Positions 1,800-19,290 of a DNA stretch of 20,000 nucleotides are shown here, piece after piece (position 1 is the stretch's first letter; every line of letters starts with the position of its first letter). A program made the position numbers and the translations under genes. The notes beneath the pieces were generated by a model. The model worked only from the letters and a program-made list of their open reading frames with translations. It did no database searches and was not told the origin of the DNA. The DNA lies in contig CAZDZV010000008.1 in the NCBI GenBank assembly GCA_964510025.1, forward strand, positions 52,452 through 72,451. The letters are read 5' to 3'. The stretch is from an uncultured Methanosarcinales archaeon. Lineage in GTDB: Archaea > Nanobdellota > Nanobdellia > Woesearchaeales > DATDXC01.

Positions 1800-3734
1800 A
1801 TGAAGACTATCGGCAAAAAAACTATGGTGAAGGCTTTTGACCTGTTCAAGAAAGAGGCAGAGCGATGGTATAGGATTGTCAGGAAATTCAGCATCCCTGA
1901 CACAGAGCCGAAAAGAACAAATCAGAGGACCATGCGCCTTACCTTTGACAATAAAAGAAAGTCCATAAAGTCAAAGCTTGTCTACCTTTATGGCGCCCAG
2001 AGAGGGACAGATACCTTTGAGAGCATAGAAAGGAAGCTTGCTGCTTTCATCAAGAAAAAGCCGAGAAAACTAAAGCAGAGAGATGCAAGGTTCAACCCAA
2101 GGGACAGGTTCACCGAGAAGGATAGCATACTTATAACCTACCCTGATTCAATTTTGGAGGATAGGGCAACACTGAAATCCCTGAAGAAGTTTCTGGATAA
2201 GCACCTGAAAGGCATCATCAACTCCATACATATCCTGCCTTTCTATCCTTTTTCTTCAGACAGGGGGTTTTCTGTAAAGAACTACAAGAAGGTCAAGAAG
2301 GAATTCGGCAGCTGGGATGACGTAAGGAACCTGGAAGAAAACTTCAAGCTGATGTTCGATGGCGTATTCAACCATATCTCCAGGAAAAGCCGCTGGTTCA
2401 GGCAATTCCTCAGGGCCAACCCTCTTTACCAGAACCATTTCATAGCTTTCGGCAAGAAGAGCGATATATCATCAGAGGATATGAAAAAGATTGTCCGGCC
2501 GAGAACATCTGAGCTTCTTAGCGAATTCAAGACAAAGCAAGGAAAGATATATGTCTGGACGACATTTAGCAGGGACCAGGTGGACCTTAATTTTAAGGAG
2601 CCAAGGGTTTTGCTCCGTATATTGGATGTGCTGTTCAGGTACATAAGAAACGGGGCATCCTTGGTGAGGATAGACGCTGCCAACTATTTTTGGAAAGAGC
2701 TGGGAACATCATGCAGCAACCTCAAACAGACGCATGTGATAATACAGCTGCTAAGGGATATACTGGACATTGCAGCGCCGTCTGTGTCGATTGTTACCGA
2801 GACAAATATAATACATTCCCTGAACAAAAGCTATTTTGGCAACGGCAGGAATGAGGCGCAGATGGTTTATAATTTCACCCTGCCGCCGCTTGTGCTGTAT
2901 TCATTCTATAAAGGAAGCGTAAAATACCTAAGCAAATGGGCTTCCAGGCTGGAAAATATAAGCGATCACTGCACATGGTTTAATTTTCTGGCATCCCATG
3001 ATGGCATAGGGCTTACTCCAGCCAAAAGGATACTGCCTAAGAAGGAAGTTGCTTTTTTAATAAAACAGGCCAAGAAGCATGGAAGCCTTGTGCAGAACAA
3101 GACTCAGGCAGGCAGGCTAATACCTTATGAGCTCAATATAACATGGTGGAATGCAATAAATGATGACAAGAAAGAAGAGCTAAAAGGGCTTAAGCTGAAA
3201 AGGTATCTGGCTTCCAGAGCGATAGCACTAAGCCTAAAAGGTGTCCCTGGGATATATATCCACAGTCTTTTTGGCACAAAAAATGACTCTGAAGCTGTAA
3301 CAAAGTCAAAGGTCAACAGGGATATCAACAGGAAGAACCTAGTGCTGAAGAAGCTGGAAAAGGAAATCGAGTCCGACAGCCTGACAAGCAGAGTGTTTGA
3401 TGGATTGACCAACCTGATAAAAATCCGGACAGCCTGCAGCGCATTTCACCCCCAGTCAGAGCAGAAAATCCTAATGGAGAACGAGTCTGTTTTTTCTGTG
3501 CTGAGGACCTCCATATCGGGAGAGGAGAAAATACTGGCATTAATCAACGTTACAGACAGGTATGTTGATTTCACCGTCAACTGCAGGAAACTGAAGCTTA
3601 ACAGCAAAAGCCTTATTGACCTGGTCAGCAGAAGGAAGATTTTACCAGCTGACAGACGGATATCTGTCAATGAATTCGATATAAGGCTAGGCCCGTACGA
3701 TATCATGTGGATTTCAAGTAAATATTTAAAGTGA
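1800..3734 (+). CDS. GH13_18 sugar phosphorylase, glucosylglycerate phosphorylase (YcjM)-like
   Basis: Motifs LITYPDS, IHILPFYPFSSDRGF, DGVFNHIS, RPRT..LL, WTTFSRDQVDLNF, RIDA (nucleophile Asp), TETN (acid/base Glu), YNFTLPPL, FNFLASHDGIG, PYELNITW, GVPGIYIHSL. A BRE/TATA-like GAAACCTTTTTTTAAG at about 1764-1779 supports a near-leaderless start at 1800. Confidence 0.9.
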   Translation: MKTIGKKTMVKAFDLFKKEAERWYRIVRKFSIPDTEPKRTNQRTMRLTFDNKRKSIKSKLVYLYGAQRGTDTFESIERKLAAFIKKKPRKLKQRDARFNPRDRFTEKDSILITYPDSILEDRATLKSLKKFLDKHLKGIINSIHILPFYPFSSDRGFSVKNYKKVKKEFGSWDDVRNLEENFKLMFDGVFNHISRKSRWFRQFLRANPLYQNHFIAFGKKSDISSEDMKKIVRPRTSELLSEFKTKQGKIYVWTTFSRDQVDLNFKEPRVLLRILDVLFRYIRNGASLVRIDAANYFWKELGTSCSNLKQTHVIIQLLRDILDIAAPSVSIVTETNIIHSLNKSYFGNGRNEAQMVYNFTLPPLVLYSFYKGSVKYLSKWASRLENISDHCTWFNFLASHDGIGLTPAKRILPKKEVAFLIKQAKKHGSLVQNKTQAGRLIPYELNITWWNAINDDKKEELKGLKLKRYLASRAIALSLKGVPGIYIHSLFGTKNDSEAVTKSKVNRDINRKNLVLKKLEKEIESDSLTSRVFDGLTNLIKIRTACSAFHPQSEQKILMENESVFSVLRTSISGEEKILALINVTDRYVDFTVNCRKLKLNSKSLIDLVSRRKILPADRRISVNEFDIRLGPYDIMWISSKYLK

Positions 3735-4767: not shown

Positions 4768-5334
4768 ATGGGATTTGACCTTGACAAAAAAAATGCCCTG
4801 AACAAAACAGACAAATCGAAAAAGAAAGGCATAGATAAAAACATATCCAAGCTGGTAGCGCTTCTCAATTCTAAGAATGATTTTTACACCACAAGCAGCT
4901 GCGCAGGAAGAATACTGCTGATATCCTTTCCTGAAAATAACAGGAAATATAATGTCAAATGGCTTTTTATCAGCCATGAGGGGGCCAGATTTGAGGACGT
5001 AAAAATATCTCTGGAGGGCAGTGATTTTGAGGATATCTGGCTGAAGCAGGAAGCTATGATAATGCATGTCTGCTGCAGGAACCTGAGGAGCGCTTCAAAG
5101 CTGATAGAGACAGCCAGGCATCTGGGATTTAAAAGGTCAGGGATAAACACAATGGCAAAAAGGATCGTCCTAGAGCTTGTAAGCACCGAGAACATGGAAA
5201 CGCCTATAGCTAAAAAAGGAAGGCTTCTAGTGGATGACAAATATCTCAAAATACTGTTGACGGAGGCCAATTCTAAGCTAAGAAGAACACATGAAAAAAT
5301 AAAAAAGCTGTACGAGGAACTATCTTCTCTTTAG
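4768..5334 (+). CDS. taw3: tRNA wyosine-synthesis methyltransferase Taw3/TYW3
   Basis: D.S.KGID, FYTTSSCAGRI signature, WLFISHE, MHVCCR, GFKRSG, E.METPI. TTTTAAAT about 24 nt upstream suggests leaderless transcription. Overlaps the convergent gene by 15 nt. Confidence 0.92.
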   Translation: MGFDLDKKNALNKTDKSKKKGIDKNISKLVALLNSKNDFYTTSSCAGRILLISFPENNRKYNVKWLFISHEGARFEDVKISLEGSDFEDIWLKQEAMIMHVCCRNLRSASKLIETARHLGFKRSGINTMAKRIVLELVSTENMETPIAKKGRLLVDDKYLKILLTEANSKLRRTHEKIKKLYEELSSL

Positions 5335-8300
5335 GATCATCACTGCTGCCCCAATGGCATAAATGACCGCCCCAAGCAGGATAATCATGACGATAACCAG
5401 CAGAGTCATGTAGTCTCCACTATCCCTGAAGGTTATTGTTGTGGGTTGCTTTGGAACTGTTGTCGGTGTAGGGTATATGTCGCTATCACCAGGCAGGATC
5501 TGGACATCTACTATGTCTTCCTCTTCTTCCTCATCCTCTTCAGGAACAGCTGCGCATTTCTGCACCGTGAGATAAAGTATCTCGGTCTCCACCTCGTCTC
5601 CATCATCATACTCGACTTCTATAGTGACCGGATAGCTGCCTTGTTCGAGATCATCATCTATAACAAAGGTGTATCTTTTTTCATATTCGTTGTCATCATC
5701 ATCGATGTCCTCACTGAGGTCGAAGGTGTTCCTTTCATCTAAGCCCAGCTGGCTGCTTTTTACTGTCAGCTCAACATCTTCCTCCTCTTCTGAGCCTATA
5801 TTCCTTATGCCTACATCCAGTCCAACGACCCTATTGCAGCTGATTACTGAAGGCGACAGGTCTGCTTCGAATATCTTAAGCATGTGCTTGTCTTTTTCTA
5901 CCTCCAGCTCTAATGTCCAATCGATCTCACTGCCGTCGTCCCCTTCTATATGTATCCTTATCTCATAGACATCCTCTTCAACCTTTTCAGGAACCTGGAA
6001 CTCGATCTCAATCCTTTCATCTTTTCCGTCTTTTATCTCATCTATAGTATCGTCTTCCTCCAGATCATCGCCGTCATCTATGTCAACTATAGTCACCTCT
6101 ACATCAATATCTTCGATATCCTCATCTCCGATATTCTTGATCTCTATATCCAGCTCAACAGTCTCTCCAGGCTTTGCCTCGTCGCTGATTGTCTCCCCGT
6201 TATTAAGGTTGGAATCCTTGTTTCCATTTACCTTTACATCCAGGTCTGTTATCCTAAGGTACCCGACTGCGCCATCATCTTCACCCTCAACCACCTTAAT
6301 AGCAACCGTGTCCTCCCCTATAAGGCCAGCGCTATCAACTACGACTAGCCCAAACTCGTAATCTCCAAGAACGGTAGGGGTGAACTTTGCCTGGAAATCG
6401 ACGCCAGTGGTTGACAGATTGACAGTCTGCGGGCCGGATATCTGAGCCCATATATAAGCCACAATATCCCCATCAGGATCTGAGGAGCCCGAACCGTCCA
6501 ATATGACTTCTGAGTCCACATCGACTGTCCTGTCGCTGCCTGCATCTGCTGCAGGCGGGTTTGATATGTTGACGAAAAACATCGAAAAGTGAGGTATCTC
6601 AAATGTCAAGGTACCGTTGGCATAATCCTTGCCGGAGCAAATGCTGCCCGGGCATGCTATGCCTGTGTCAGCTGCAAATCCGCTGTTGTAAAGGATCTCA
6701 GGCTGCTCTACAAATGGAAGCTGATACATGCTGTTATCAGATGGTGTAGACTGGAAAACAGTGAATGCATCGGAATCGATCCCAAGCTTGCCGAGCGATA
6801 GCTCTACATACCTGTCAACATCCACCACATTACTTAGGTCTATTGTCTGGTTACCGAAATCAATCTTTCCAAACTCATTTTCTATGGTCAGGCCGGTAAA
6901 GGCATTCACGTTGGATTCATTTACATCGTTAATCGTACCGCCGTAAGTTGTAATAGGTATCAGGCTTACCTGCACGGTCCATTCTTTTCTGTCAAACGTA
7001 TCTGTTGCGTTTGACACATTGGCAACAACATCGAATGTTCCTGCTGTAGCCTTGTTGAACTGGAAATCCGCTCCAGTATCTTCCAGCACATCCTCTATAT
7101 ACCAATTTATGCTGTGGGCTATACCGTCTGGGTCTGCCACATCCACATGGAAATCTAGGTTCAAGCCATCACCCACCAGCAAGTATGCTTGTGTCGGCAG
7201 AGCATCCTTTATATATGGCAGATCATCGAAGAGCTGGTTCACGGTCACCAATATATCCTGGGAATCGACAAATTCGCCGTCGCTGACATTAAGCGTTATC
7301 GTTTCGCTCCCATACCAGTCATCCTCCAATGTTCCAAATGTGATGACCTTGTTAGGGGCGATGCTCACTGTGATGTTCTTGTTGCCAGACCATGTCCATA
7401 TAAGGTTATCACTGTCTATGTCCTCTGCATAGTCGTCCAAGTCAAGGCTGCTGTTTGTCCCATCCTCGTCAAATTCCACATCTGGTATCGCTTCAGCTAT
7501 GAATGGCGGATCATTTACAGGCTCTACAGTTATCCTGAACAAGCTGTATTCAGTATAGCTTCCTGTCGCGCTTATGTTGACATCAGAATGGCCAGTAGCA
7601 TTCGCAGAGGGCTTTCCACAGTCAACATATCTGTTGGCGTTTATTGAACAGCTTATCAATGAGCTGTTGGACTGAGATTCAACTGAATAAGTGAAATGGC
7701 TTCCAGGGTAGTTTGGATCATCTGTATAGTTCCAAAGGTCAATCCAGTTTGAAGCTGGCTCTGTGTCTTCATCTACGCTGAAATCGGGGATGCCAAAGCA
7801 TTCTGATACTTCAAGATATACATTTTCCTGTATCGTTTCCGTATAGAACCAGGTAACCTCTATGCTGACAGCGTAGCTGCCAGGATCATCTTTTGTCGTG
7901 TTGATATTGTATGTTTTTCTGATGGACGTGTTCTTGTCTATCGCAAACTGCTCCTCTATATCAATTCCCAGCTGTTCGCTGCTTACCCTGATGGTGTTTC
8001 CGTTTATCTGGTCCTTGCTTCCCCTATTGGTAATGTTAAAGGATAATACTGCTTCCTTGACACAGCCAACCTCATCAGGTGTCAGGTTGACATCTTCAAC
8101 GATCACATCATTATTGTCTTTTTTAACATCTATATATATTGTCCTTTCAACAATGCGAAGAATATGGTCTTCATCTTCCCCTATGCCTTTTATATGGAGG
8201 GGATAAACCTCCTCTCCTATTATATTTGGAAGGCTGAACTGAAGAGTGACTGTCTCTGTCTGATCCGGCTCAAGCTTTGGAATAAGTGAGGATTCCTGGA

Positions 8301-10449
8301 GCAATCCAAGGTCGGTGTTTATGCTGCCATTTACAGTAATGCCCCTGATCTCCATGTCTATCAGGTTTTTCAGCTCAACATCGACTTCCATCAGGGAACC
8401 GGGCATTGCTTCTACCGTGTCAAGATCATCGAGGTTGCTGTTCTCTGTGCCATCCACTGCTATATCAAGATCGGAAATCTCCAATGAGCTCAAGATGGTG
8501 AGGGTGACTGTCTCATTATCCTGGCCGCCTTTGCCGTCTGTAACGCGGAAAAGCACATCATGCACCCCGACATCTGCATAGCAAGGTGTCAAAGTCACCT
8601 CTCCAGAGGTCTGGTTTAGCTGGAATCCGCATATGCTCGCATTTGTCTGGAATGTAAGATTATCATTTGTGGGGTCCTCGTCTGTTGCTTCAAGATCAAA
8701 GCTAAGCGTAAGGCTTTCAGTTGCAGTCTTATCTCCTATGGAAGCAAGGACGGGATCGTCGTTTACGTTGGTTATATTTATGGTAATGTTCTGGCTGCCG
8801 GACAGAAGCCCATCTGAGGCAGTTATGGTGACGTTTTCCTGCAGAATGCCATTTGGATAGTTGAATGTGATTACCTGGCCATCAACATCTCCATATGGGC
8901 TGTCTGTTGTGATCGTCAGCTCCGATATGTTGGTATCGACATCATATAAATATGGTGTGACATTGAGCGTCAGGTTGGTCTCTTCAACCGCATTCTGGTC
9001 TGAAATGCCGGATATGATGGGAGCGTCATTATCGGACAATACTACCATGGTAAAGTTTTCAGTTGAAAAATCCACGTTATCATCTGCTGTGCAGGTGATG
9101 TTCAGCTCTCCGTAGAAATCATTTGAAGAGGTGATATTGAGCATCTTGTCAACATTGTCAACGTCAGCTGCCACATCCGCCACATCCGCGCTGCAGCTCC
9201 AGTTGATATCATCTACTGCTGTGTCCACATCAACGACATGTTCAGAGAGGTTTATCAACGTAAATGAATCCTCGAATATCGTCAAGCCATTCAGGCTGCT
9301 GAAGCTTATCTCTGGAGCATCGTTGACAGGAAGCACGCTTATGAAAAAGGTCTTGTCTATGGTGCCATAGCTATCGTCGATCCTGATTGTACAGTTGGCT
9401 TCCCCGTAGTAATCCTGGGCAGGATTCAAGCTAATATTCGTATCGTTAATTATAGAGCAGGCAACCTCATCTGAATCGACAACCGAGTATTCCAGCAAGT
9501 CACCATCAGGATCAGCTATATAATGCGATAGGTTGAACAATGCAGCTGTATCCTCTTCAATAGTCTGATTTGGAATATCATCCTGTGAAAGCCGGTTATT
9601 TGTCGCGTTTGGCGTTGGTATATCAAATTCAATCCATGTCGGCAGGGCGTCATGCAGCCTCCCTATAGAGACATCCTCCTGAGCCACCCACATATATGAA
9701 TACTGGCTTATTATCTCTCCCAACACATTGATAAGCTGAATTGTGTCATCATCCTTGTTAAGCATATTAACCACATCCACATAGAAGTGGCTGCCAGGTT
9801 CAATTATTCCGCTCTCTATTGCTTTTGTGTTGTCTATGCTGTCATTTATAGACCAGCCGGCCAAGTCTATAGCAATCGTATCATTGTTATATATCTCAAC
9901 CCAGTCATGGCCAGAAGAATAAGGCATGAATTCGTTTATAATAAGATTAGGTGACGTGTAAACGTAAACTGTCCCATTCTCAACAGATGATGGGTAGACC
10001 GTAAGGGGTGCGGGTTCACTGCTGTCATAGACCTGGGCATTTTCAATTTTTATCTGGGTTGTATCCTCTCTTGTTATGGCCTTAAAAGTCAGGTTTACAA
10101 GATGTCCGCTTCCATTTAAGCCAGAATAGGTATCATCCTTGTATATAGAGACCAGGACAAACCCCTCTGAATTGTTAATCTCAGATGTGTCATGAACAGT
10201 ATCTCCTGTTCTGCTGAAAAAACCGCCCTCTGTCTCAGATACTGCCTGTATGACATCGGGATCATAGAGGACATTGAACTGAGTTCCTACAATAGAGTCT
10301 GTTGTGTCAACATCAACAGTAAGAACAAATGTGTCATTAAGGCTGAGCGTCTTTTGAACCGGATTCACATTCATTGTTGTCGCTGCAGAGACAATTGTTG
10401 TCAAGAACAAAATAAACATTAATAGGCTGTAAGTTGATTTGTTTTTCAT
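5320..10449 (-). CDS. Large membrane-anchored surface glycoprotein (scaffoldin-like): signal peptide, cohesin, lamin-tail domain, multiple cadherin-like/Ig repeats, CARDB/S-layer-like modules x2, PKD-like domain, C-terminal TM anchor
   Basis: N-terminal K-rich then hydrophobic signal. Cohesin-like aa ~24-163 (TFVLTVDVD..GTQFNVLYDPDVI..EGGFF..GSGHLVNLTFKAI). LTD (LIINEFMP..DWVEIYN..IDLAGWSIND..PTPNATN). Linkers VNDAP, DNDAP, VNDDP, VNDPP. PKD-like ADAGSDRTV..LDGSGSSDPDG. P/T linker, then TM LLVIVMIILLGAVIYAIGAAVMIL-KRR. Many NxS/T sequons. GAGGGG SD. Confidence 0.88.
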   Translation of the reverse strand: MKNKSTYSLLMFILFLTTIVSAATTMNVNPVQKTLSLNDTFVLTVDVDTTDSIVGTQFNVLYDPDVIQAVSETEGGFFSRTGDTVHDTSEINNSEGFVLVSIYKDDTYSGLNGSGHLVNLTFKAITREDTTQIKIENAQVYDSSEPAPLTVYPSSVENGTVYVYTSPNLIINEFMPYSSGHDWVEIYNNDTIAIDLAGWSINDSIDNTKAIESGIIEPGSHFYVDVVNMLNKDDDTIQLINVLGEIISQYSYMWVAQEDVSIGRLHDALPTWIEFDIPTPNATNNRLSQDDIPNQTIEEDTAALFNLSHYIADPDGDLLEYSVVDSDEVACSIINDTNISLNPAQDYYGEANCTIRIDDSYGTIDKTFFISVLPVNDAPEISFSSLNGLTIFEDSFTLINLSEHVVDVDTAVDDINWSCSADVADVAADVDNVDKMLNITSSNDFYGELNITCTADDNVDFSTENFTMVVLSDNDAPIISGISDQNAVEETNLTLNVTPYLYDVDTNISELTITTDSPYGDVDGQVITFNYPNGILQENVTITASDGLLSGSQNITINITNVNDDPVLASIGDKTATESLTLSFDLEATDEDPTNDNLTFQTNASICGFQLNQTSGEVTLTPCYADVGVHDVLFRVTDGKGGQDNETVTLTILSSLEISDLDIAVDGTENSNLDDLDTVEAMPGSLMEVDVELKNLIDMEIRGITVNGSINTDLGLLQESSLIPKLEPDQTETVTLQFSLPNIIGEEVYPLHIKGIGEDEDHILRIVERTIYIDVKKDNNDVIVEDVNLTPDEVGCVKEAVLSFNITNRGSKDQINGNTIRVSSEQLGIDIEEQFAIDKNTSIRKTYNINTTKDDPGSYAVSIEVTWFYTETIQENVYLEVSECFGIPDFSVDEDTEPASNWIDLWNYTDDPNYPGSHFTYSVESQSNSSLISCSINANRYVDCGKPSANATGHSDVNISATGSYTEYSLFRITVEPVNDPPFIAEAIPDVEFDEDGTNSSLDLDDYAEDIDSDNLIWTWSGNKNITVSIAPNKVITFGTLEDDWYGSETITLNVSDGEFVDSQDILVTVNQLFDDLPYIKDALPTQAYLLVGDGLNLDFHVDVADPDGIAHSINWYIEDVLEDTGADFQFNKATAGTFDVVANVSNATDTFDRKEWTVQVSLIPITTYGGTINDVNESNVNAFTGLTIENEFGKIDFGNQTIDLSNVVDVDRYVELSLGKLGIDSDAFTVFQSTPSDNSMYQLPFVEQPEILYNSGFAADTGIACPGSICSGKDYANGTLTFEIPHFSMFFVNISNPPAADAGSDRTVDVDSEVILDGSGSSDPDGDIVAYIWAQISGPQTVNLSTTGVDFQAKFTPTVLGDYEFGLVVVDSAGLIGEDTVAIKVVEGEDDGAVGYLRITDLDVKVNGNKDSNLNNGETISDEAKPGETVELDIEIKNIGDEDIEDIDVEVTIVDIDDGDDLEEDDTIDEIKDGKDERIEIEFQVPEKVEEDVYEIRIHIEGDDGSEIDWTLELEVEKDKHMLKIFEADLSPSVISCNRVVGLDVGIRNIGSEEEEDVELTVKSSQLGLDERNTFDLSEDIDDDDNEYEKRYTFVIDDDLEQGSYPVTIEVEYDDGDEVETEILYLTVQKCAAVPEEDEEEEEDIVDVQILPGDSDIYPTPTTVPKQPTTITFRDSGDYMTLLVIVMIILLGAVIYAIGAAVMILKRR

Positions 10450-10498
10450 TATGGCATTCCCCTCTAGTCTTGATTAAACTAATGCAAATGAATATTAC

Positions 10499-10513
10499 TT
10501 TATAAAGCTTTCG
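10499..10513 (-). promoter_or_regulatory. BRE-TATA promoter for the cohesin-bearing gene
   Basis: The minus strand reads CGAAAGC-TTTATAAA about 50 nt upstream of ATG 10449. Confidence 0.7.
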
Positions 10514-10541
10514 ATATTTTTAGTATTCTGCAGTAGTAACC

Positions 10542-13343
10542 CTATGTGAAAGCTCTCCTGATAAATATCAGGTCCAATGTATTGATTGCACCGTCGCCAG
10601 AAACATCGTAGCGAGGATCCCAGTTCGGATCACTGGGAGTTACGCCAAACATCCTCCTTGTCAGTATAAGGTCTAAGGTATTTACCACCTGGTCCTCGTT
10701 CACATCTCCAGGCAGGTCAGCCCACCTGTCGGGATCCAGGGGAAAATCATCAATAAGGTCATTATAACCATCTCCATCTGTGTCAGGATTCTTCGGGTCA
10801 GTGCCGATAACAGCTTCTTCATCATCAGCAAGCCCGTCATTATCATCGTCATCATCGCAGACATCCCCCATGCCATCAGAGTCAAAGTCATCCTGGCCTG
10901 GATTTACATCTGCGGGGCAGTTGTCAGAATAGTCATCTATCCCATCATCATCGGTGTCAGGGGGCAGAACGGTAAAGCTGAACAATGTTGAATTGGCCTC
11001 ATTAGATGAATTGTCATATGCCCATATCCTGTATTCCACGAAATCCCAAAGATCGAACTCCCCCAGGTTTGCCGAGTATCGATCAGGCGCTATTTCTTCC
11101 ATATCCTTTATCGTAAATACGCTGTTGTTTATCCTGTATGCAACAAAAACATTATCCAATGCAAAGTTATCGGTGACTGCAGCAAATACAGTGACATTGC
11201 TGTTAAATTCATCAACCTCATCAGGTTGATGATAGACATCAGCTATCAACGGAGCCGACCTGCAGTCTATATCCATGAGGTTGCGTCCGCTGACAAAGTC
11301 TCCGTTTCCTCCGCGAAGGAATGTTCCCGGATATCCGTCCCTGCAGCCCTCGAATTCAAGAAGGAAGGATTCTCCTGTATTGAATATCAGCTGATCCAGC
11401 GTATCAAAATAAGCATCTCCCTGCAGATGAGCAGGAATATTTTTACCGACCAGGCCTTCATAAATCCGGCCTGCATTGTCACCTGATGTCACTGTTATCT
11501 GGTAGTTGGATCCTGTGGCCAGCATGACCCCATCAACAGAAAGCCTGCCCCGCACGTAGTTCAGGTCAAGATCGTCCGCTACATCAGGCAGAAGGTTGTA
11601 GCAGCCAGAAAAGTCAAAAGAGCAGGAGCTGCATGAAAGGGTGCCAGCATCATATCCCTCACTGGCGCATGTGGCTCCTCCAAGATTATCCGAATCGCAT
11701 TCCTCATCACCTTCTATGATGCCATCCCCGCAGCTGTAGCATCCAGACGTATCGAACACGCAAGAGGCTGAGCATGCCAGACTTCCGCTATCAAAGCCAA
11801 GCGACTGGCAGGTCTCACCAGCTAGCTCATCGCTATCACATTCTTCATTTTCCCCAATAATGCCGTCACCGCATGAACTAAAGAAGCAACCAGAGACATC
11901 TAAGGTGCAGGAGGGGCTGCAGACAAGGCTGCCTCCATCATAGCCTTCACTCAGACAGCTTGCTCCGCCGAGACTATCTGTGTCGCATTCCTCATCACCT
12001 TCTATGATCCCATTTCCGCAGACATTTGAAGTGCATCCTGAAAAGTCGAAATTGCAGGACTGGTCACATGACAGATCTCCACCTTCATATCCCTGGGAGA
12101 GACAGGTCTCTCCGGCAAGCTGGTCTGTGTCGCATTCCTCATCACCTTCTATGATCCCATTTCCGCAGACATACGATACACAGGCTGAAAAATCGAATTC
12201 ACATGACTGATCGCAAGATAAGGTCCCAGAGTCATAGCCCTGGGTCAGGCAGGTCTGTCCCCCAAGATCATCCGTATCACAATCCTCTTGGCTGTTTCTT
12301 ATGCCATCTCCGCAAAATTCCTGGCCGCTCAGGACACATTCGCAGGATGAGCTATCACACTGGTAATCAGGCCCACAGTCCTGGTTTGTCTCGCAGGGAG
12401 CGCTGCATATCGCCTTGCTGCAGGTATTGGTGAAATCATAAGGATATATCTGGCAGTCGAGCACTGGATCACAGTACCCATTCACGCTTGGCGCTGTGTC
12501 GAATGTATAGGGGTTGCTGTCTGAATCATGAAAGCATGTGGCGATTCCCGGAAGCCCCGGGCAGAGCGCATCAATAGGGGTAAAAACACAGCCTGTCTGG
12601 CTGTCACAGGCATCATTTGTGCATACAATACCATCATCACAGAGACCATTGTCAGGTGCATTGGAGCAGACCCCACCTTCACATGTATCAACAGTGCATC
12701 CTATTCCATCGTCACAATCCAGGTCTTCAGAGCATTCAGAAGAGGTGTTGCATGGCATTTCTGTGGCGTTGGCCGAATTCTGGGGGCTTGGTAGGCTGTC
12801 ATGCCAGAAATCCTGGAAGTTGCTGCCTGAGTCCACCCAGTTGCCGCATGACGGGTCTGTAATACCTGGCCTTCTTTCAAAAGAGTAGCCTGATATAGGT
12901 TCAGGCAGGATTGCTCCTTCGTAATAATCCGCTATCTCAACTGTCCAGCCGATCCTATCCACAATGGTTCCTGAATTTTCCAGCTGCAGGCCCATACCGC
13001 TGTTTGTGAGGCTGTAGGTGTGCCTTAGATCAGGCTCGGCCCATTCTGATGGCCAGTTGGCTGCAGGATTATTTGATATGAGGAAAAAGCTGTAGGCAGG
13101 CATTATCGTGCCAGGAGGAATATCCTTTGAATAGACTGTGCTGCTTGACTTGAAATTTATCTTCCATGATCCGATATTCACTGCTGTACCGGTGGGATTG
13201 TACAGCTCTATGTATTCAAGACCACTGTCACCTCCAGCTGCATTTACATGCAGTTCAGAAAAGACAATATGGTCTGCAGGATCAGCTGCCAGAGCTGAGC
13301 CTAGCAGAATGATGCACACCATCACTAATATATTCTTTTTCAT
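10542..13343 (-). CDS. Secreted protein: signal peptide, lamin-tail domain, Cys-rich repeats, Ig-like domain, thrombospondin type-3-like Ca-binding repeats, C-terminal dockerin
   Basis: LTD (HIVFSELHVN..EYIELYNPTG..VNIGSWKI..PSPQN). CDDGxxCTxDxC repeats. Five CG(D/N)GII..E.CD..L.G.TC..GY..G.L.C..SC.FD.SGC repeats. DTDDDGIDDYSDNCP..NPGQDDFDSDGMGDVCD. Dockerin GDVNEDQVVNTLDL..RR / YDVSGDGAINTLDL..RR at 10545-10712. No TM anchor. Confidence 0.9.
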   Translation of the reverse strand: MKKNILVMVCIILLGSALAADPADHIVFSELHVNAAGGDSGLEYIELYNPTGTAVNIGSWKINFKSSSTVYSKDIPPGTIMPAYSFFLISNNPAANWPSEWAEPDLRHTYSLTNSGMGLQLENSGTIVDRIGWTVEIADYYEGAILPEPISGYSFERRPGITDPSCGNWVDSGSNFQDFWHDSLPSPQNSANATEMPCNTSSECSEDLDCDDGIGCTVDTCEGGVCSNAPDNGLCDDGIVCTNDACDSQTGCVFTPIDALCPGLPGIATCFHDSDSNPYTFDTAPSVNGYCDPVLDCQIYPYDFTNTCSKAICSAPCETNQDCGPDYQCDSSSCECVLSGQEFCGDGIRNSQEDCDTDDLGGQTCLTQGYDSGTLSCDQSCEFDFSACVSYVCGNGIIEGDEECDTDQLAGETCLSQGYEGGDLSCDQSCNFDFSGCTSNVCGNGIIEGDEECDTDSLGGASCLSEGYDGGSLVCSPSCTLDVSGCFFSSCGDGIIGENEECDSDELAGETCQSLGFDSGSLACSASCVFDTSGCYSCGDGIIEGDEECDSDNLGGATCASEGYDAGTLSCSSCSFDFSGCYNLLPDVADDLDLNYVRGRLSVDGVMLATGSNYQITVTSGDNAGRIYEGLVGKNIPAHLQGDAYFDTLDQLIFNTGESFLLEFEGCRDGYPGTFLRGGNGDFVSGRNLMDIDCRSAPLIADVYHQPDEVDEFNSNVTVFAAVTDNFALDNVFVAYRINNSVFTIKDMEEIAPDRYSANLGEFDLWDFVEYRIWAYDNSSNEANSTLFSFTVLPPDTDDDGIDDYSDNCPADVNPGQDDFDSDGMGDVCDDDDDNDGLADDEEAVIGTDPKNPDTDGDGYNDLIDDFPLDPDRWADLPGDVNEDQVVNTLDLILTRRMFGVTPSDPNWDPRYDVSGDGAINTLDLIFIRRAFT
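11600..12315 (-). repeat. Five tandem ~49-aa Cys-rich repeats (147-nt period)
   Basis: An exact 49-bp copy TCTGTGTCGCATTCCTCATCACCTTCTATGATCCCATTTCCGCAGACAT lies at 11977-12025 and 12124-12172, with a further partial copy near 11694-11730. Confidence 0.9.
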
Positions 13344-15364
13344 TCTATCTTAAGCGTAAAGTTTTTGTTTGCAGTCAGCCAGTATCCTTCTGCCGGCTGA
13401 ATATCAAAATCATTTGGCTGATACCATGAGCTGACAGAGGGATAATATGTAGCCAGATAGTATGTTCCGTTCCTGTTTCTGGAAGCTATCTCTGTGATAT
13501 TATAGTCATCCTGATTGAAGCTTGAAACATCAGTTGCATTATATAAGGCAAGCCCTATCAGATTCTGCCCTTTTCGCAGCTCAATATCCTTTGATATGAT
13601 CGGGTAACCAACCACAGTGAAGTCCAGGGTATGTTTGGAATTCAGGAAATATCCTGCAAGAGGCTCCATACCGCCAGGATCCCATGTATGTGTTGATGGA
13701 TTATAGTCAAATGTCTGGAATCCTCCATCAAAGGTCCTTATCTGAGAAATCGGATGGTAGCCGGAATCCTGATGCATCACTGCATCTATGTCATCGTCAA
13801 ACGGGTCAAGGTTCAGTGACACAAGGTTGTATCCCTCCACCAAGCTCCAGTCATATTTGGCCACGATATTCGTATTATTCTCCTGATTGCCTGCAGAATC
13901 GACTGACCTGACGATATAATACCTTTCCCTATCAGCGTAAGCGTCTGAATCAATATAGTCTGTATCAGATGTCTGGGCGCTTGGCGAAATGTAGCTATAG
14001 GATTCAAAATCGCTTGCACCATAGATATAAATGTCATAATGGTCAACTGATTCACCTGAAGGAGCATCCCAGTCCAGCTTTATTATATTGTTAGGGTTGA
14101 TCACCTGAAGAATTAGGTTTTCAGGTGCTTTGGGCGGCGTGTAGTCTTCTGTGGCAAACGAAGCTAAAGAAGAGTTTTTGCAGTTACCGCTTGGATCGCA
14201 CATCTCTACCAAGTAATCATATTGTGTACCTTCTTCCAGCGCATCAAGCATAAAATCTGCCTCATCATCCAGTGCTGACAAAGGGCTTATCAGGCTTAAA
14301 GCTGACACACCATAATACATCCTGGAAAAGCATTGCTCGCTGAACGTAAATGAGATGTCCAGGGTGGAATTTGTCTTATTGTTTATGTTCGTAGAAACAA
14401 GATTAGGGGCAGTGAAGTCCAGCGTAGTGAATGAAAAGGTCCCTGTTTTGCCGCAAACCTCATCCTCATTGCAGGAGCTTATGTTGAAGTAATATATGGT
14501 ATCTTCCTCAAGGCCGGTCAGATCTACACTATGATCAAGGCTGAAGCTGGAATCAGCGATCGAGTCTGTAAAGACTGTGGTGGTCCCATAGTCTATTCTT
14601 GTTGTTCCTGGCTCGTCAGTATCCCAGGTTACAGTCGCTGACTGGTTTGTGATATCAGAAACCTCAACATCAATTATGGCAGGTGGGATGGTATCTGTCA
14701 CGAGCCAAAGAGCAGACCTTCTGAAAAGATATTCAGCAGCATCTGTCCACTGGTCAACCTCTATCATGCCGAAGAACACTGATTTTGTATTTGAATAGCG
14801 GCCGTTCCTGAGCTTGGTTCCTTCCTCTGCTGTGCCGATCAATGCGCTATTCTGGTTTGAAGCAGGAGAGTCGCTTATGGCAAGGACTGATTCCACGGCA
14901 GGCGCCTTGACAAGCTTGTCCATATAGTAGCCTGTCAGCGTAAGGTCGCCCAACAAATAAAGCTGTACTGTGCCGAAAAGGCCCTGCGTGATGAAATGGT
15001 CCGGGTCTGTCACATAGCCTGAGAGAGGACGGCTTGAAGCACGCTGAGAAAGCCGCCTTACCCATTCCCAGTCATCCATATAATACCTGTTCAATATAAG
15101 GGCAGGAAATTCGTTGACAGGTATATCCTCATTATTTGAAAAAATCTCGTTGTTTACCACCATAAAATCATAGTCAGAAAAGACAATATCCCCTATATCC
15201 TCGTCAAAAACAGTATCCACCGCAAATCCAAGGTCTTCCAGATTATCAATGATGGTCTGCTCCATACCGAACTCGCTGTTGACCAGATAGACCACTCTGT
15301 TGGTCTCAGCAGCAGCAAAACTAACAAAGAACAGGATGCTAAAAATTATCAATATCCTTTTCAT
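13340..15364 (-). CDS. Secreted fibronectin type III-like repeat protein
   Basis: Signal peptide. DTIPPAII..SATVTWDTDEP..YGTT..HSVDLTGLEEDTIYYFNISS and two further Fn3-like units (PKAPENL..LDWDAP..YDIY..YYIVRSVDSAGNQ). C-terminal LVEGYNLVSL / LRKGQNLIGL duplicated motif. ATGA overlap with both neighbours. Confidence 0.8.
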   Translation of the reverse strand: MKRILIIFSILFFVSFAAAETNRVVYLVNSEFGMEQTIIDNLEDLGFAVDTVFDEDIGDIVFSDYDFMVVNNEIFSNNEDIPVNEFPALILNRYYMDDWEWVRRLSQRASSRPLSGYVTDPDHFITQGLFGTVQLYLLGDLTLTGYYMDKLVKAPAVESVLAISDSPASNQNSALIGTAEEGTKLRNGRYSNTKSVFFGMIEVDQWTDAAEYLFRRSALWLVTDTIPPAIIDVEVSDITNQSATVTWDTDEPGTTRIDYGTTTVFTDSIADSSFSLDHSVDLTGLEEDTIYYFNISSCNEDEVCGKTGTFSFTTLDFTAPNLVSTNINNKTNSTLDISFTFSEQCFSRMYYGVSALSLISPLSALDDEADFMLDALEEGTQYDYLVEMCDPSGNCKNSSLASFATEDYTPPKAPENLILQVINPNNIIKLDWDAPSGESVDHYDIYIYGASDFESYSYISPSAQTSDTDYIDSDAYADRERYYIVRSVDSAGNQENNTNIVAKYDWSLVEGYNLVSLNLDPFDDDIDAVMHQDSGYHPISQIRTFDGGFQTFDYNPSTHTWDPGGMEPLAGYFLNSKHTLDFTVVGYPIISKDIELRKGQNLIGLALYNATDVSSFNQDDYNITEIASRNRNGTYYLATYYPSVSSWYQPNDFDIQPAEGYWLTANKNFTLKIE

Positions 15365-16005
15365 TTTCCCTTGTTTATCACAAAGAATGCAAGCAGGCCT
15401 ACAGCCACTATAATGGCCACTATCATGCTGCCGACAAGCATCTTGTTCGGTTCAGGCTCCTCAGCCTTGAAAGCGTCCTTCGAGCCTGGCGTCACAGAGA
15501 CTCCGGTGTCTTCTGGTTCAGGCTGGCCCGGGTTTGCCACAGGCGGAGGAGGCGGCATCTCCCTTTCTTCCACTTCCAGCGCCCCGTCGTCTATCTCAGG
15601 ACCCTCAGAATTTACGATTAATGTCGAGATCAGCCCTGCGTTGTTATCCTTCACATCAGGATCAGCAGGCGAAAATCCAACATTGAATGCGATCTCAAAG
15701 ATACCTCCTCTGTCGATGGTAGCAGTGTACCTGGCATTTTTTGATTCAGCAGGCTGAAGAACAAACTCCTCATCCTGTATGTCTATGAAGTAGTCGTATT
15801 TTTCGTCAACCACTACGTTTATACGGACAGCGAAATCATTTGTGTTCTTGACCAATATTGACCTTTGAAGAACAGCCGGATCTTGCGGAGATGCATTAAC
15901 ATTAACGATAGCCCTGACATTTCCAATCCTTGTCCTTATACTGCATATAGAAGGCAGAGCTATTATCAGGACAAACAACAAGACGAATATTTTTTTGCTA
16001 ATCAA
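15361..16005 (-). CDS. Small single-pass surface protein: signal peptide, one Ig-like domain, Pro-rich linker, C-terminal TM
   Basis: Probable TTG start at 16005, 6 nt after a GGGGGAG SD; the ORF-track start at 16020 overlaps that SD. PPPPPVANPGQPEP linker. TM MLVGSMIVAIIVAVGLLAFFVI-NKGK. Confidence 0.75.
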   Translation of the reverse strand: MISKKIFVLLFVLIIALPSICSIRTRIGNVRAIVNVNASPQDPAVLQRSILVKNTNDFAVRINVVVDEKYDYFIDIQDEEFVLQPAESKNARYTATIDRGGIFEIAFNVGFSPADPDVKDNNAGLISTLIVNSEGPEIDDGALEVEEREMPPPPPVANPGQPEPEDTGVSVTPGSKDAFKAEEPEPNKMLVGSMIVAIIVAVGLLAFFVINKGK

Positions 16006-16169
16006 TGTTAACTCCCCCAATAATACTACCTTTTGGTAATTTTAATTATTATTTACTTTATAATAACAAATAATTGGATATGTATATTTAAATATTACGG
16101 TAATTAGAAGTATATGTTATAAGATATAAAAATTTTTGCCTAAATAAGGTAGTAAAACAGTACTCTTAA

Positions 16170-16965: not shown

Positions 16966-19290
16966 TTAAATATAGGTCTCCTGCCCATTGCCGGTATAAG
17001 GTTCTGTGGGTTCTGAACCTGTTACAGCATCATCTGAGTCATCGCTGTATTTCCTGTAGATGAACTTTGAGCCATCGGGCATGCACACATACACTCCAAA
17101 CCTGCTGGAGTCATATACGCCGTAGCCTTCCGGAGTCTCTACAAGCTTTGCGCCATGGCAGCTGTATACTGTTCCGGATGCACCTGTGAATTCGTATCCT
17201 TCCATGATGCCATCTTCGTCAGTATCGACAGCAATCCACGTGTCTTCTTGATAGTCTCCGCCTTCTGCATTGGTCCTGAAAACCACATTGCCCAGAGCAA
17301 CACATTCTCCATTCCTGCATTCATTTGAGCAGGTTTCCTTGGCTATCTCCTCTTCTGTATGGTCGCAGTAGCTCTGCTCTGTACCGGGCAGATAGCATGT
17401 GTATTCCCTGTATACCTGGGTCACGTCAAATCCTACACAATAGGGCATCCCTATAAAGCTGTCAGTTCCGCAATCTGAATCCTGCGAACATTCAATGTCC
17501 ACCGGTCTGCACTGGCATCCGGTGCATCTTTCTTCAGCTCCGCAATCATCGTTATCTTCGCACTGCTCCACACCTGTGTAAAGAACTCCGTCCCCGCATA
17601 CGTTGTAGGTGCAGTCGTTCTTGCAGCCATCGTTATTGTTGCTGTTTTCATCATCGCAGTCTTCCCCTGACTGCACAATGCCATTGCCGCAGACTTCCAG
17701 CCTGCAGTTCGAGTCACAGCCATCTCCATTAGCGTTGTTCCCGTCATCGCACTGCTCTCCTGGCTGGATATCGCCGTTGCCGCAGTCAGGATTCAGCAAT
17801 CCCAGAACCTGGTCGAGCTTGCCGTCCATGGACGTGATTTTTCCTTCCAGCTCCAGGAGCCTGCTCTCAATCCCGATTATCTCAGTCTTTATCTCCTGTA
17901 ACCCATGCTCTTCATCCATTACTTCATCTTCGATGTTTCTTACTTCATCCTTGATTTCTTCCAGGCCAAATGCCGGATCCTCAAGAATGTCGATGAGATC
18001 TGCGACAGCAGATGCTGAAGCCCTCGAGCTAACAGCAGCATCCAAATCGCTCAGGTCAATATCATCCAGCTTGCTCTCAATCGCTCCAGCCTCGCTTTCA
18101 GTGGCCAGGTCTTCAGGTATCACAGCCTTGAAATCCTCCTTGCTGTTGAGTATCTCCTGGACGCTTGCTTCATCAGCTATACCGTCCTCAGGCAGCTTAT
18201 CCTCTATGTTCCTGACCTCGTCCTTGATCTCCTCAATGCCGAACGTGGGACTGAGGATAAGGTCCAGTATGGCCTGGACGCTGGCTTCTTCTGCTAGATC
18301 AGATACATCAGCCTTGAATTCATCTGGATTGCTGACAGCAGCCTCTATTGCTGCTATCTCTGTCTTAATCTCAACAAGTCCTGTAGCCTCATCATCGATC
18401 TTGCTTATTATATCCTGTACGCTTGCCTCGAGCGCCAGATCGTCTATATTTGGGATATCCAGCTCATCAATGCCTGCCTGGATCGCATCAACCTTTGCCC
18501 CTACATCATCAACATTTGCTTCTGTTGCCAACCCAGCAAGGTCCTCGGGCGAAGCTCTTGAGCTTACCATAGCATCAAGATTCGGGCTTATCAGGCCATA
18601 TAGCGCCTGCAACCCGTATGTTTCATGCGTAACTGCCTGTTCGATCATGATTATCTCTGCTTTTATCTCTTCCAATCCGATGCTTTCATCTGTCAGCAGG
18701 CTGTGTATTGTCTCCAGCAGGCTCAGGTCAATACCTGCAGGATTCAAGTACAGAAGCGCCCTGGTCACATCCCCGTTATGGCCTTCTGCATCTTCGTCTG
18801 TCCTTATCACTTCAGCAATGACCAACAGAGAGTAAGGCGCTTCTCCCTGCACTGTGCCCTGGAACACCATAACAGATTCCAGGCTGTCATCGTCATAGTG
18901 GTTGCTATAGACTGTCCCTGTGATGCCGGCCATAATCGTGCCGTCAGCCCATCCGTCTGCCTCCAGGGCCAGTGTTCCTCCGGTATATTCTGTTTTATAT
19001 CTGGCGATAGCATCGTCAATAGGATCAATCGGCACTGGAGATCCGGTCAATGTGAGGCCACTAACTTCCCACTGTCCACTGTCTCCTTCAGCTGACAGAA
19101 CATTGCCAGGTTCTCCGGCTGCTCCGCCATCATATGCCTCTTCCCATGTACCTAATTCCAGGCTGCTCACCGGATCAGCTTCCTTGTCATACCAAAAACC
19201 AGAGCCTATATCCGCAGAAACAGCGCCAATCAGAAAAACCCAAACACAAAAAACACACAGAACTCCCTTAACCATGTCTGATACTTTCAT
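16966..19290 (-). CDS. Secreted protein with an acidic repetitive coiled-coil-like stalk and DUF4215/Myxococcus-type Cys-rich repeats
   Basis: Signal peptide ending in AVSA. Five G(L/I)xEIKxE(I/V)xxIE motifs, repeated EASVQ, LDA(M/A)VSSRAS twice. CGNGDIQPGEQCDDGNNANGDGCDSNC and CGNGIVQSGEDCDD. GGGGGTG SD; TTTAAATA at about 19334-19341. Confidence 0.85.
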   Translation of the reverse strand: MKVSDMVKGVLCVFCVWVFLIGAVSADIGSGFWYDKEADPVSSLELGTWEEAYDGGAAGEPGNVLSAEGDSGQWEVSGLTLTGSPVPIDPIDDAIARYKTEYTGGTLALEADGWADGTIMAGITGTVYSNHYDDDSLESVMVFQGTVQGEAPYSLLVIAEVIRTDEDAEGHNGDVTRALLYLNPAGIDLSLLETIHSLLTDESIGLEEIKAEIIMIEQAVTHETYGLQALYGLISPNLDAMVSSRASPEDLAGLATEANVDDVGAKVDAIQAGIDELDIPNIDDLALEASVQDIISKIDDEATGLVEIKTEIAAIEAAVSNPDEFKADVSDLAEEASVQAILDLILSPTFGIEEIKDEVRNIEDKLPEDGIADEASVQEILNSKEDFKAVIPEDLATESEAGAIESKLDDIDLSDLDAAVSSRASASAVADLIDILEDPAFGLEEIKDEVRNIEDEVMDEEHGLQEIKTEIIGIESRLLELEGKITSMDGKLDQVLGLLNPDCGNGDIQPGEQCDDGNNANGDGCDSNCRLEVCGNGIVQSGEDCDDENSNNNDGCKNDCTYNVCGDGVLYTGVEQCEDNDDCGAEERCTGCQCRPVDIECSQDSDCGTDSFIGMPYCVGFDVTQVYREYTCYLPGTEQSYCDHTEEEIAKETCSNECRNGECVALGNVVFRTNAEGGDYQEDTWIAVDTDEDGIMEGYEFTGASGTVYSCHGAKLVETPEGYGVYDSSRFGVYVCMPDGSKFIYRKYSDDSDDAVTGSEPTEPYTGNGQETYI

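Follow-up and report, generated by a model that had tools for sequence, protein, structure and literature searches.

A cohesin-tipped surface stalk with a predicted Nup98-type self-cleaving joint, and an adjacent dockerin protein, in a Woesearchaeota-like archaeon

Two adjacent genes were analysed in a 20,000-nucleotide stretch of DNA (the window), which corresponds to C8:52452-72451 of the genome G000 of an uncultured archaeon. One gene encodes a membrane-anchored scaffold protein of 1709 amino acids (aa) with a cohesin at its tip, and the other encodes a secreted protein of 933 aa that ends in a dockerin. It is reasonably likely, judging from the sequences of this locus and its relatives, that the transmembrane (TM)-anchored stalk, a self-cleaved joint within it, and the tip cohesin carrying the secreted dockerin head make up a sheddable attachment arm.

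The scaffold and its dockerin partner

The two open reading frames (ORFs) were recovered as described in the initial annotation (1709 aa at 5320-10449 and 933 aa at 10542-13343, both on the minus strand) and are spaced 92 bp apart. The gene junction (9827-10890) is spanned by one contig of the public run X2, and the HFS site of the scaffold lies within another, of run X1 (5544-9328), each with 0 differing letters; the matching contigs came from three DNA runs of a single microbial-mat study, possibly the source sample. The features of the two genes are as follows.

5320..10449, minus strand: scaffold gene, 1709 aa (ORF, Pfam, hydropathy)
9958..10383, minus strand: cohesin at the membrane-distal tip, aa 23-164 (Pfam, model, fold match, profile against PDB)
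9595..9957, minus strand: lamin-tail domain (LTD), Pfam aa 165-252, domain end approximate (Pfam)
7006..9594, minus strand: immunoglobulin (Ig)/cadherin-like stalk with Big_9, Cadherin_4/5, He_PIG and tandem-95 repeats, limits approximate (Pfam, NCBIfam)
6559..6972, minus strand: predicted Nup98/Nup145N-type autoproteolytic domain, about aa 1160-1297 (Pfam of an orthologue, model, fold, profile)
6583..6591, minus strand: HFS, aa 1287-1289, predicted self-cleavage between Phe and Ser (sequence; mechanism from bioRxiv 10.64898/2026.05.12.724683)
6286..6561, minus strand: PKD domain (Pfam)
5530..6267, minus strand: membrane-proximal Ig pair related to the Woesearchaeota/Pacearchaeota putative S-layer protein NF033506 (NCBIfam)
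5332..5409, minus strand: C-terminal TM anchor (sequence, hydropathy)
10459..10464, minus strand: ribosome-site-like GAGGGG upstream of the scaffold (sequence)
10499..10506, minus strand: TATA-box-like TTTATAAA, preceded by a purine-rich stretch, about 50 bases 5' of the scaffold ATG (sequence)
10542..13343, minus strand: dockerin protein, 933 aa, secreted, no anchor (ORF, Pfam, hydropathy)
12759..13280, minus strand: LTD head of the dockerin protein plus a C-terminal extension (Pfam, comparison with the related genome G119)
10545..10715, minus strand: dockerin, aa 877-933 (Pfam, PDB profile search, repeat alignment)

From its N-terminus, the scaffold consists of a signal peptide, the cohesin, the LTD, the Ig/cadherin stalk, the Nup98-type domain, the PKD domain, a PACE-CTERM-like Ig pair, a TM helix and a KRR tail, and it contains 48 N-glycosylation sequons. 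The N-terminal cohesin proposed in the initial annotation was borne out. Pfam Cohesin matched aa 37-149 (E 9e-9, 36 bits against a cut-off of 24.1), and an AlphaFold model built on 48 related cohesins had a predicted local distance difference test (pLDDT) score of 93.4. Among the structural matches listed by VIA, 49 of 50 were cohesins (best Z 17.4, root-mean-square deviation (rmsd) 1.9 Å over 139 residues), and the best Foldseek E was 7e-10. The tip is accordingly modelled as a true cohesin with the nine-stranded beta-sandwich fold. It has no clear type in these models because its scores against type I, ScaC and archaeal cohesins are level (Z 16.4-17.4), with those against type II slightly lower (Z 14.5-15.5); when the cohesin family profile was searched against PDB, type II cohesins ranked first. 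A homologue search with aa 20-300 returned 9 other proteins, all with an LTD and none with a listed cohesin.

The long Ig/cadherin stalk and the C-terminal anchor were likewise found as proposed, the former as Pfam repeats, which in the scan of the scaffold also included PKD and CARDB types, and the latter as a hydropathy helix beginning at about aa 1677. An internal copy of the PACE-CTERM-like Ig pair is held within the stalk. The match to NF033506 was limited to the membrane-proximal part of the scaffold, with a whole-protein score of 91.5 bits, below the cut-off of 110. The LTDs expected in both proteins were matched by Pfam at aa 165-252 of the scaffold and aa 22-134 of its partner. Ahead of the scaffold ATG, the TATA-box-like TTTATAAA, judged against the archaeal TATA-box consensus, suggests that the scaffold has its own promoter. 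A sigma-70 promoter scan (22 found, 24.3 expected) was set aside as not relevant to archaea.

The autoproteolytic domain was missed in the initial annotation. A scaffold orthologue matched the Pfam Nup98-96 autopeptidase family at E 6.8e-8, and the AlphaFold model of the domain in the scaffold had a pLDDT of 77.7. Foldseek ranks 1-16 for this domain were Nup98, Nup116 or Nup145N (best E 9e-4); in VIA, the Nup98 rows had Z 8.9-10.4 (the top one with rmsd 3.1 Å over 117 residues), ZU5 had Z 7.1, and the GAIN rows had Z 4.8-5.9. A profile of 33 rows hit human Nup98 at E 6e-8; the alignment takes in most of its length and brings the HFS sites into register. HX(S/T) was retained in 6 of 7 scaffold orthologues, with Ser and Thr interchanging, and the 33 wider copies of the domain had HF(S/T) in 21 cases, GFS in 10 and Gln in 2; these copies include the window, G119, and four from a 10,021-aa giant protein of G000 (each HFT), and exclude L202 of the unpublished genome G132. 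Across the order, 114 of 201 genomes contained the domain; leaving out the unpublished G132, G112 and G183 makes this 111 of 198. In the model it has the fold of the Nup98/ZU5/GAIN superfamily, with a cleavage turn before the last strand and an HX(S/T) site. Since the Nup98-type autoproteolytic domain has an intact HFS, the scaffold is probably a breakaway stalk.

The ZU5/Nup98/GAIN family was reportedly extended to bacteria and archaea by Liao et al. in 2014. The grouping of ZU5, GPS and Nup96/98 domains, and their presence in large bacterial surface proteins, are noted in PMC3482391. MAIN domains are described by Brogan and Rudner (bioRxiv 10.64898/2026.05.12.724683) as located between adhesion or enzyme domains and the anchor; cleavage is shown there to fall between the Phe and Ser in HFS, and the fragments to remain together afterwards. 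An anchoring cohesin of the A. thermocellus cellulosome supplied one of the MAIN domains tested there; shear-driven release is put forward by the authors as a proposal and not as a result, and Nup98 is unmentioned in the main text. As a separate observation, the LTD (9595-9957) and the Nup98-like domain (6559-6972) place relatives of two eukaryotic nuclear-envelope domains in one archaeal surface protein.

The partner protein comprises the LTD, Cys-rich repeats (57 Cys; Dictyostelium-type and DUF4215-like in Pfam), an unassigned 110-aa domain, an Ig-like domain, TSP3 Ca-binding repeats and the dockerin. It was described earlier as secreted and unanchored, and no hydropathy helix was found after the signal. 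The dockerin that had been read at its C-terminus agrees with Pfam Dockerin_1 at aa 878-931 (E 8e-9, 36 bits against a cut-off of 22.9) and with its closest solved relative, the type II dockerin 2y3n_B (E 1.7e-6). Its two Ca-binding loops have D/N at positions 1, 3, 5, 9 and 12, except for Ser at position 3 of loop 2, and positions 10/11 are TL and positions 17/18 are RR in both repeats; five Asp are invariant across the 31 rows of the family alignment. By these sequence characters, the C-terminus is classed as a canonical, internally symmetric dockerin with two predicted Ca-binding loop-helix repeats. Among the sequences compared, the 110-aa domain had a match solely in the G119 orthologue, and an Atlas search with aa 585-800 gave a best score of just 0.75, a blank.

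The pair had also been called enzyme-free. This holds for hydrolases, in that Pfam and PDB profile searches of both proteins detected no domain of a glycosidase, lyase or trans-acting protease, and NCBIfam matches were all partial and well under cut-off, with an M36 peptidase family across the PKD domain. It does not hold in full, in that the scaffold has the predicted Nup98-type autopeptidase domain and relatives carry lyase- or glycosidase-like cargo.

The pair in relatives and across the order

In G000 (97.7% complete), one cohesin and one clear dockerin gene were found, and they are adjacent; no further cohesin was found in this genome with three profiles. Weak dockerin-like or EF-loop matches at C2:29548, C22:3916 and C17:8043 (domain E 4e-5 to 0.04) had no TL/RR symmetry and were not counted as cargo. 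Because the genome has one cargo gene for its single cohesin, the earlier suggestion of a swappable device fails within this cell, and swapping was seen only between lineages.

Using Pfam on 301 genomes of the order, cohesin was detected in 33 and dockerin in 71. Dockerin was present in 25 of the 33 cohesin genomes and in 46 of the 268 cohesin-free genomes (76% vs 17%; Fisher p 2e-11, which overstates the association because related genomes are not independent). Counted by family, by hand from the Pfam tables, co-occurrence was 17/21; leaving out the dockerin-positive unpublished G274 makes the cohesin-free figure 45/267. A co-occurrence of 24/35 obtained with our own profiles was partly circular, since mainly cohesin-linked genomes had gone into the dockerin profile, and the Pfam figures were preferred.

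A total of 91 regions were fetched around hits, chosen by hit and not at random, and the first 80 were used for the adjacency and anchor counts. Of 32 cohesin genomes, 13 had a dockerin gene no more than 400 bp away in the same orientation, upstream in 12 of them; many of the remaining contigs were short. None of the 76 dockerin proteins whose C-terminus was complete had a TM helix beyond residue 80, vs 18 of 43 cohesin proteins, one of these helices probably being a signal with a wrongly called start; several further cohesin proteins of the 43 had lipoprotein-like or pilin-like N-termini. The dockerin was C-terminal in 52 of the 76. Dockerin identity was 61% within a genome and 36% between genomes. 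With one dockerin taken from each of 23 genomes, the two repeats agreed at positions 10, 11, 17 and 18, which we take to be the recognition positions, in 54% of cells vs 21.5% when shuffled, and at the loop positions in 35% vs 26%. The code reads TL/TL plus RR/RR in the window and EF/EF in the G119 orthologue. Taken across the order, gene order, anchor polarity and co-occurrence fit a cognate pair. A complex prediction with cohesin, dockerin and two Ca scored 0.20 against a mark of 0.32; controls were not folded, and the score was used neither way.

Giant orthologues of the scaffold are located beside the same nucleotidyltransferase at loci L156 (2603 aa), L145 (1837 aa), L148 (1638 aa) and L154 (2727 aa), and the first three of these start with an LTD. 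No cohesin or dockerin gene was found at these four loci within the available DNA, and no cohesin was found in the genomes of these loci and L144 (0/5, completeness not given). In G119, which belongs to the same family as G000, the gene order is the same, with an 878-aa dockerin protein followed by a 1763-aa cohesin stalk; the L143 proteins share lengths and scores with those of G119, and the pair was counted once. It is likely from these comparisons that the cohesin and dockerin genes joined a locus that first encoded a one-piece stalk with an LTD tip, the form that relatives have kept there. Gain of the two together is the simplest reading, with loss in the relatives as an alternative because the tree is unrooted. 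In the window dockerin protein, aa 1-199 and 213-388 match a separate TM-anchored 1015-aa protein of G119 (40% and 39%), and aa 387-794 match the G119 dockerin protein (33%). Since its parts match two separate G119 proteins, its sequence reads as a mosaic, with heads exchanged between lineages and not within this cell.

Cargo in the relatives was surveyed by scanning 80 of their dockerin proteins against Pfam, with domains counted by hand. A glycosidase, lyase or peptidase family was matched above its curated cut-off in 18 of the 80 (GH39, GH28, GHL15, chondroitinase B, lyase 8, lyase 14, Polysacc_lyase, Pel9A-like, pectate-lyase-like, heparinase II/III and subtilase), and beta-helix-type domains were found in 9 more. 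The genome G042 has 18 dockerin matches in gene arrays, one of which terminates at two cohesin genes, and G161 and G174 have 10 each. Because two lyase-like cargo proteins of G042 match solved lyases only over short or non-catalytic stretches, the cargo is described from its sequence as enzyme-like folds and not as enzymes. At the order and class loci examined there were at most 2 cohesins per protein. A sample of the phylum gave 29/301, including 4 genomes of another order, 2 of which had a dockerin beside the cohesin gene.

Other arrangements were also observed. A pilin-like protein (class III signal, weak Pfam match) ending in a cohesin was found at L091, L088, L087, L129, L128, L190 and L192 (genomes G067, G170, G289, G069, G171, G395 and G336, respectively); its gene usually ends a run of pilin-like genes and is then followed by that of a large secreted protein with a dockerin-like domain. 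In family f68, cohesin was present in 8 of 8 sampled genomes, and no dockerin was seen next to the pilin-like cohesin in G236 and G425. An adaptor-like cohesin-cohesin-PKD-dockerin protein of G023 (L077:8895-14284) has as neighbours one cohesin with a TM anchor and another joined to a prenyltransferase/squalene-cyclase-like barrel. At L059 (G246), at least 8 tandem dockerin-like domains are present in one protein of a genome in which no cohesin was detected.

Predicted mechanism and alternatives

As an attachment arm, the locus would work as follows. The dockerin protein would be secreted, and its calcium-bound dockerin would clip 1:1 onto the tip cohesin. The stalk would cut itself at HFS after Phe1288, near the membrane. 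Strand complementation would hold the two pieces together, keeping the outer arm and its cargo non-covalently attached until a pull detaches them. The LTD/Cys-rich head, held tens of nanometres away from the cell (a rough estimate from about 15 beta-sandwich domains), would make contact with a host cell, a matrix or a surface, and shear would release the arm, letting the cell detach. This cell would have a one-socket, one-plug adhesion arm, and other members of the order would have arrays of lyase- or glycosidase-like heads on the same coupling.

Several observations weigh against such an arm. For the joint, 12 of the 33 Nup98-like copies have lost the His, so the domain can persist without cutting. 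One strand of the window copy contains an atypical polar stretch, PSDNSMY, and the single-sequence Pfam score of this copy is weak (E 0.007), with 6 of 7 orthologues matching at E<=1. A frameshift in the odd strand was considered and is unlikely, as the X1 contig agrees with the window. For the coupling, kinship among the genomes inflates the p-values, dockerin occurs without a detected cohesin in 46 of 268 genomes by Pfam and in 9 of 33 even with a cohesin-linked profile, dockerins are present in 2 of 5 genomes having cohesin-free stalks, and 8 of the 33 cohesin genomes have no Pfam dockerin. The repeat symmetry may partly reflect recent duplication. In a mirror test on 14 adjacent pairs, cohesin and dockerin similarities were weakly parallel (rho 0.20, p 0.09), and cohesin-like domains are so common (56,883 representatives at E<=0.001) that the fold alone shows no partner.

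Some of these points would also be expected if the two proteins did not bind one another, the dockerin being a lone Ca-binding module for adhesion or self-association, the cohesin a further beta-sandwich of the stalk, and their adjacency a result of surface-gene clustering. The dockerins of cohesin-free genomes, the abundance of cohesin-like domains and the non-significant mirror test fit this explanation, and dockerins have been proposed as adhesins in Omnitrophota (PMC10066038, bioRxiv 10.1101/2023.11.21.568195), with one described as essential in a Saccharibacterium (PMC10633639). It is nevertheless unlikely in the face of the 76% vs 17% co-occurrence, direct adjacency in 13 of 32 genomes, the strict anchor polarity (0/76) and symmetric recognition residues specific to the genome. 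Binding could instead cross species, with the tip cohesin taking up dockerins from a host or a neighbouring organism, or with the secreted dockerin engaging a cohesin on a host, as a device for host recognition or enzyme theft. Type II pairs are reported to cross-react between species, and ANME (anaerobic methanotrophic) archaea and clostridia to be rich in such modules (PMC9012536, PMC12484212); the best PDB match of the dockerin is type II (2y3n_B), and the scaffold apparently has its own promoter. This explanation has only a slim chance, since both genes are present and adjacent, relatives without the cohesin also lack a dockerin gene at this locus, and the dockerin code is genome-specific.

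The pair might also bind on a stalk that neither cleaves nor releases, with the Nup98-like domain as a structural spacer in a permanent arm. The catalytic His missing from 12 of 33 homologous domains and the moderate confidence of the fold model (pLDDT 77.7) are compatible with a spacer, and force-driven release is described as a proposal even for MAIN domains (bioRxiv 10.64898/2026.05.12.724683). We consider a permanent arm distinctly unlikely, because HX(S/T) is retained in the window and its closest orthologues (6/7), with Ser and Thr interchanging, and is aligned to the Nup98 site.

The proposed sheddable attachment arm bears on how Woesearchaeota and other uncultured DPANN archaea attach to, feed on and leave their hosts. 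A wider proposal can be offered only tentatively, and we hold it to be possible but doubtful: in about 1 in 10 Woesearchaeota-like genomes, a cohesin-dockerin plug with a code of its own in each genome may serve for surface display in general, with TM stalks, lipoproteins or pilin-like subunits as its mounts. This minimal archaeal counterpart of the cellulosome would carry one adhesive head, as in the window, or up to 18 lyase- or glycosidase-like heads that digest host envelopes or matrix, and the window version, on its Nup98-type self-cleaving stalk, would be an episymbiont's force-released arm for attaching and letting go. The locus offers a small domain pair (142 + 57 residues) and a self-cleaving domain that are testable in vitro without culture. 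What these cells bind and may eat is hinted at by their head domains and by the lyase-like cargo found in relatives, and genome-specific cohesin-dockerin codes would be new orthogonal parts for designer scaffolds. The surprise is limited by the parts being known.

Host, neighbouring genes and known systems

The host is classed from sequence as a Woesearchaeota-like DPANN archaeon, in agreement with the probable DPANN origin given in the initial annotation, on the basis of its small, near-complete genome (1.70 Mb in 33 contigs), the failure to find mcrA in a search of G000, and a neighbouring nucleotidyltransferase gene nested among Woesearchaeota and Nanoarchaeota. The 44 relatives of this nucleotidyltransferase were 22 Woesearchaeota, 7 Nanoarchaeota/Nanoarchaeia, 3 labelled 'archaeon' and 12 labelled 'uncultured Methanosarcinales'. 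In a quick one-gene tree, the 'Methanosarcinales' rows were dispersed among Woesearchaeota, with label clustering as in shuffles (229/500), and the rows closest to the window were Nanobdellota.

The dockerin gene is the last of three genes that each overlap by 4 bases, the other two being the following.

13340..15364, minus strand: secreted FN3 protein, 674 aa (4-base overlap with the dockerin gene; orthologue at the same place in G119)
15361..16020, minus strand: 219-aa protein with a hydrophobic C-terminal segment (with an orthologue in G119; its gene opens the overlapping run of three)

No cohesin or dockerin was found in the 674-aa FN3 protein. Its last 170 aa (13343-13843) form an unnamed two-repeat domain, for which stand-alone 170-aa hypothetical clusters in Atlas scored 0.90-0.91; recurrence of this domain on other G000 proteins was not confirmed by a profile. 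Elsewhere in the window, 16966-19290 encodes a secreted acidic 774-aa protein in which a long coiled-coil-like region precedes Cys-rich repeats of the myxobacterial type. A GH13 alpha-amylase-family gene without an evident signal peptide (1800-3734) adjoins genes for a four-CBS/DUF835 protein, the nucleotidyltransferase and TYW3, and the ends of the TYW3 and scaffold genes overlap by 15 bases. Very large ORFs of G000 encode 10,021 aa (C2:117658-147723), 7464 aa (C8:17860-40254), 5223 aa (C8:2358-18029) and 5182 aa (C4:84435-99983), and two of the four traverse N runs.

No description of cohesin or dockerin in DPANN archaea was found in the literature, although subscription papers and bioRxiv supplements may mention them. 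Studies of anaerobic digestion, the rice stem borer, Lake Cadagno and the camel rumen contain 'dockerin' together with a DPANN term, and the supplements of PMC8204110 and PMC8421398 gave no match. Among ultrasmall-celled organisms, Cand. Shapirobacterales of the Candidate Phyla Radiation are reported to express cohesin and dockerin proteins and to encode glycosidases and lyases (bioRxiv 10.1101/2021.08.21.457207); these are small-celled like the host of the window, yet bacterial.

A cellulosome would be expected to have a multi-cohesin scaffoldin and several dockerin-bearing polysaccharide-degrading enzymes, whereas G000 has one cohesin and one clear dockerin protein in which no catalytic domain was found. 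The pair is by definition not a cellulosome and, by analogy, is predicted to work like the anchoring pair of one. Clostridial anchoring scaffoldins (SdbA/CipA, PDB 2b59 and 5k39; B. cellulosolvens 2y3n) likewise have an anchored cohesin and a partner with a two-loop Ca-binding dockerin, the capture being predicted here. They are anchored by SLH domains or sortase, whereas the window scaffold has a TM anchor and a PACE-CTERM-like, S-layer-type base, a single cohesin, and cargo that is non-catalytic and LTD/Cys-rich in place of an enzyme-bearing scaffoldin. The A. thermocellus anchoring cohesin with a MAIN domain is described as likewise having an HX(S/T) domain between cohesin and anchor (bioRxiv 10.64898/2026.05.12.724683); unlike that clostridial case, the predicted self-cleaving domain of the window resembles Nup98 more than GAIN (Z 10.4 vs 5.9). 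With the Nup98-Nup96/Nup145 domain (PF04096, peptidase S59) and the ZU5/GAIN/MAIN superfamily it has in common the fold, sequence similarity and the HFS site, and it differs from Nup98 in being extracellular, in an archaeal adhesin-like protein, with one invariant Cys and a second conserved Cys.

The Archaeoglobus fulgidus cohesin (PDB 2xdh) has the same fold (Z 16.5, rmsd 1.9 Å over 124 residues) and likewise comes from an archaeal, non-cellulolytic host. Archaeal cohesin-dockerin pairs are reported to bind specifically, and ANME archaea to have many of them, with cargo described as mostly ABC substrate-binding or S-layer domains and scaffolds of at most 5 cohesins (PMC9012536). Compared with the ANME and Archaeoglobus systems, the window comes from a reduced-genome DPANN host and has a long stalk with a predicted self-cleaving joint, and its relatives have lyase-like cargo. 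The individual parts are thus known from clostridial anchoring scaffoldins, MAIN domains and the Archaeoglobus and ANME pairs; the window brings a cohesin-dockerin coupling together with a Nup98-type, predicted self-cleaving joint on a DPANN S-layer-type stalk.

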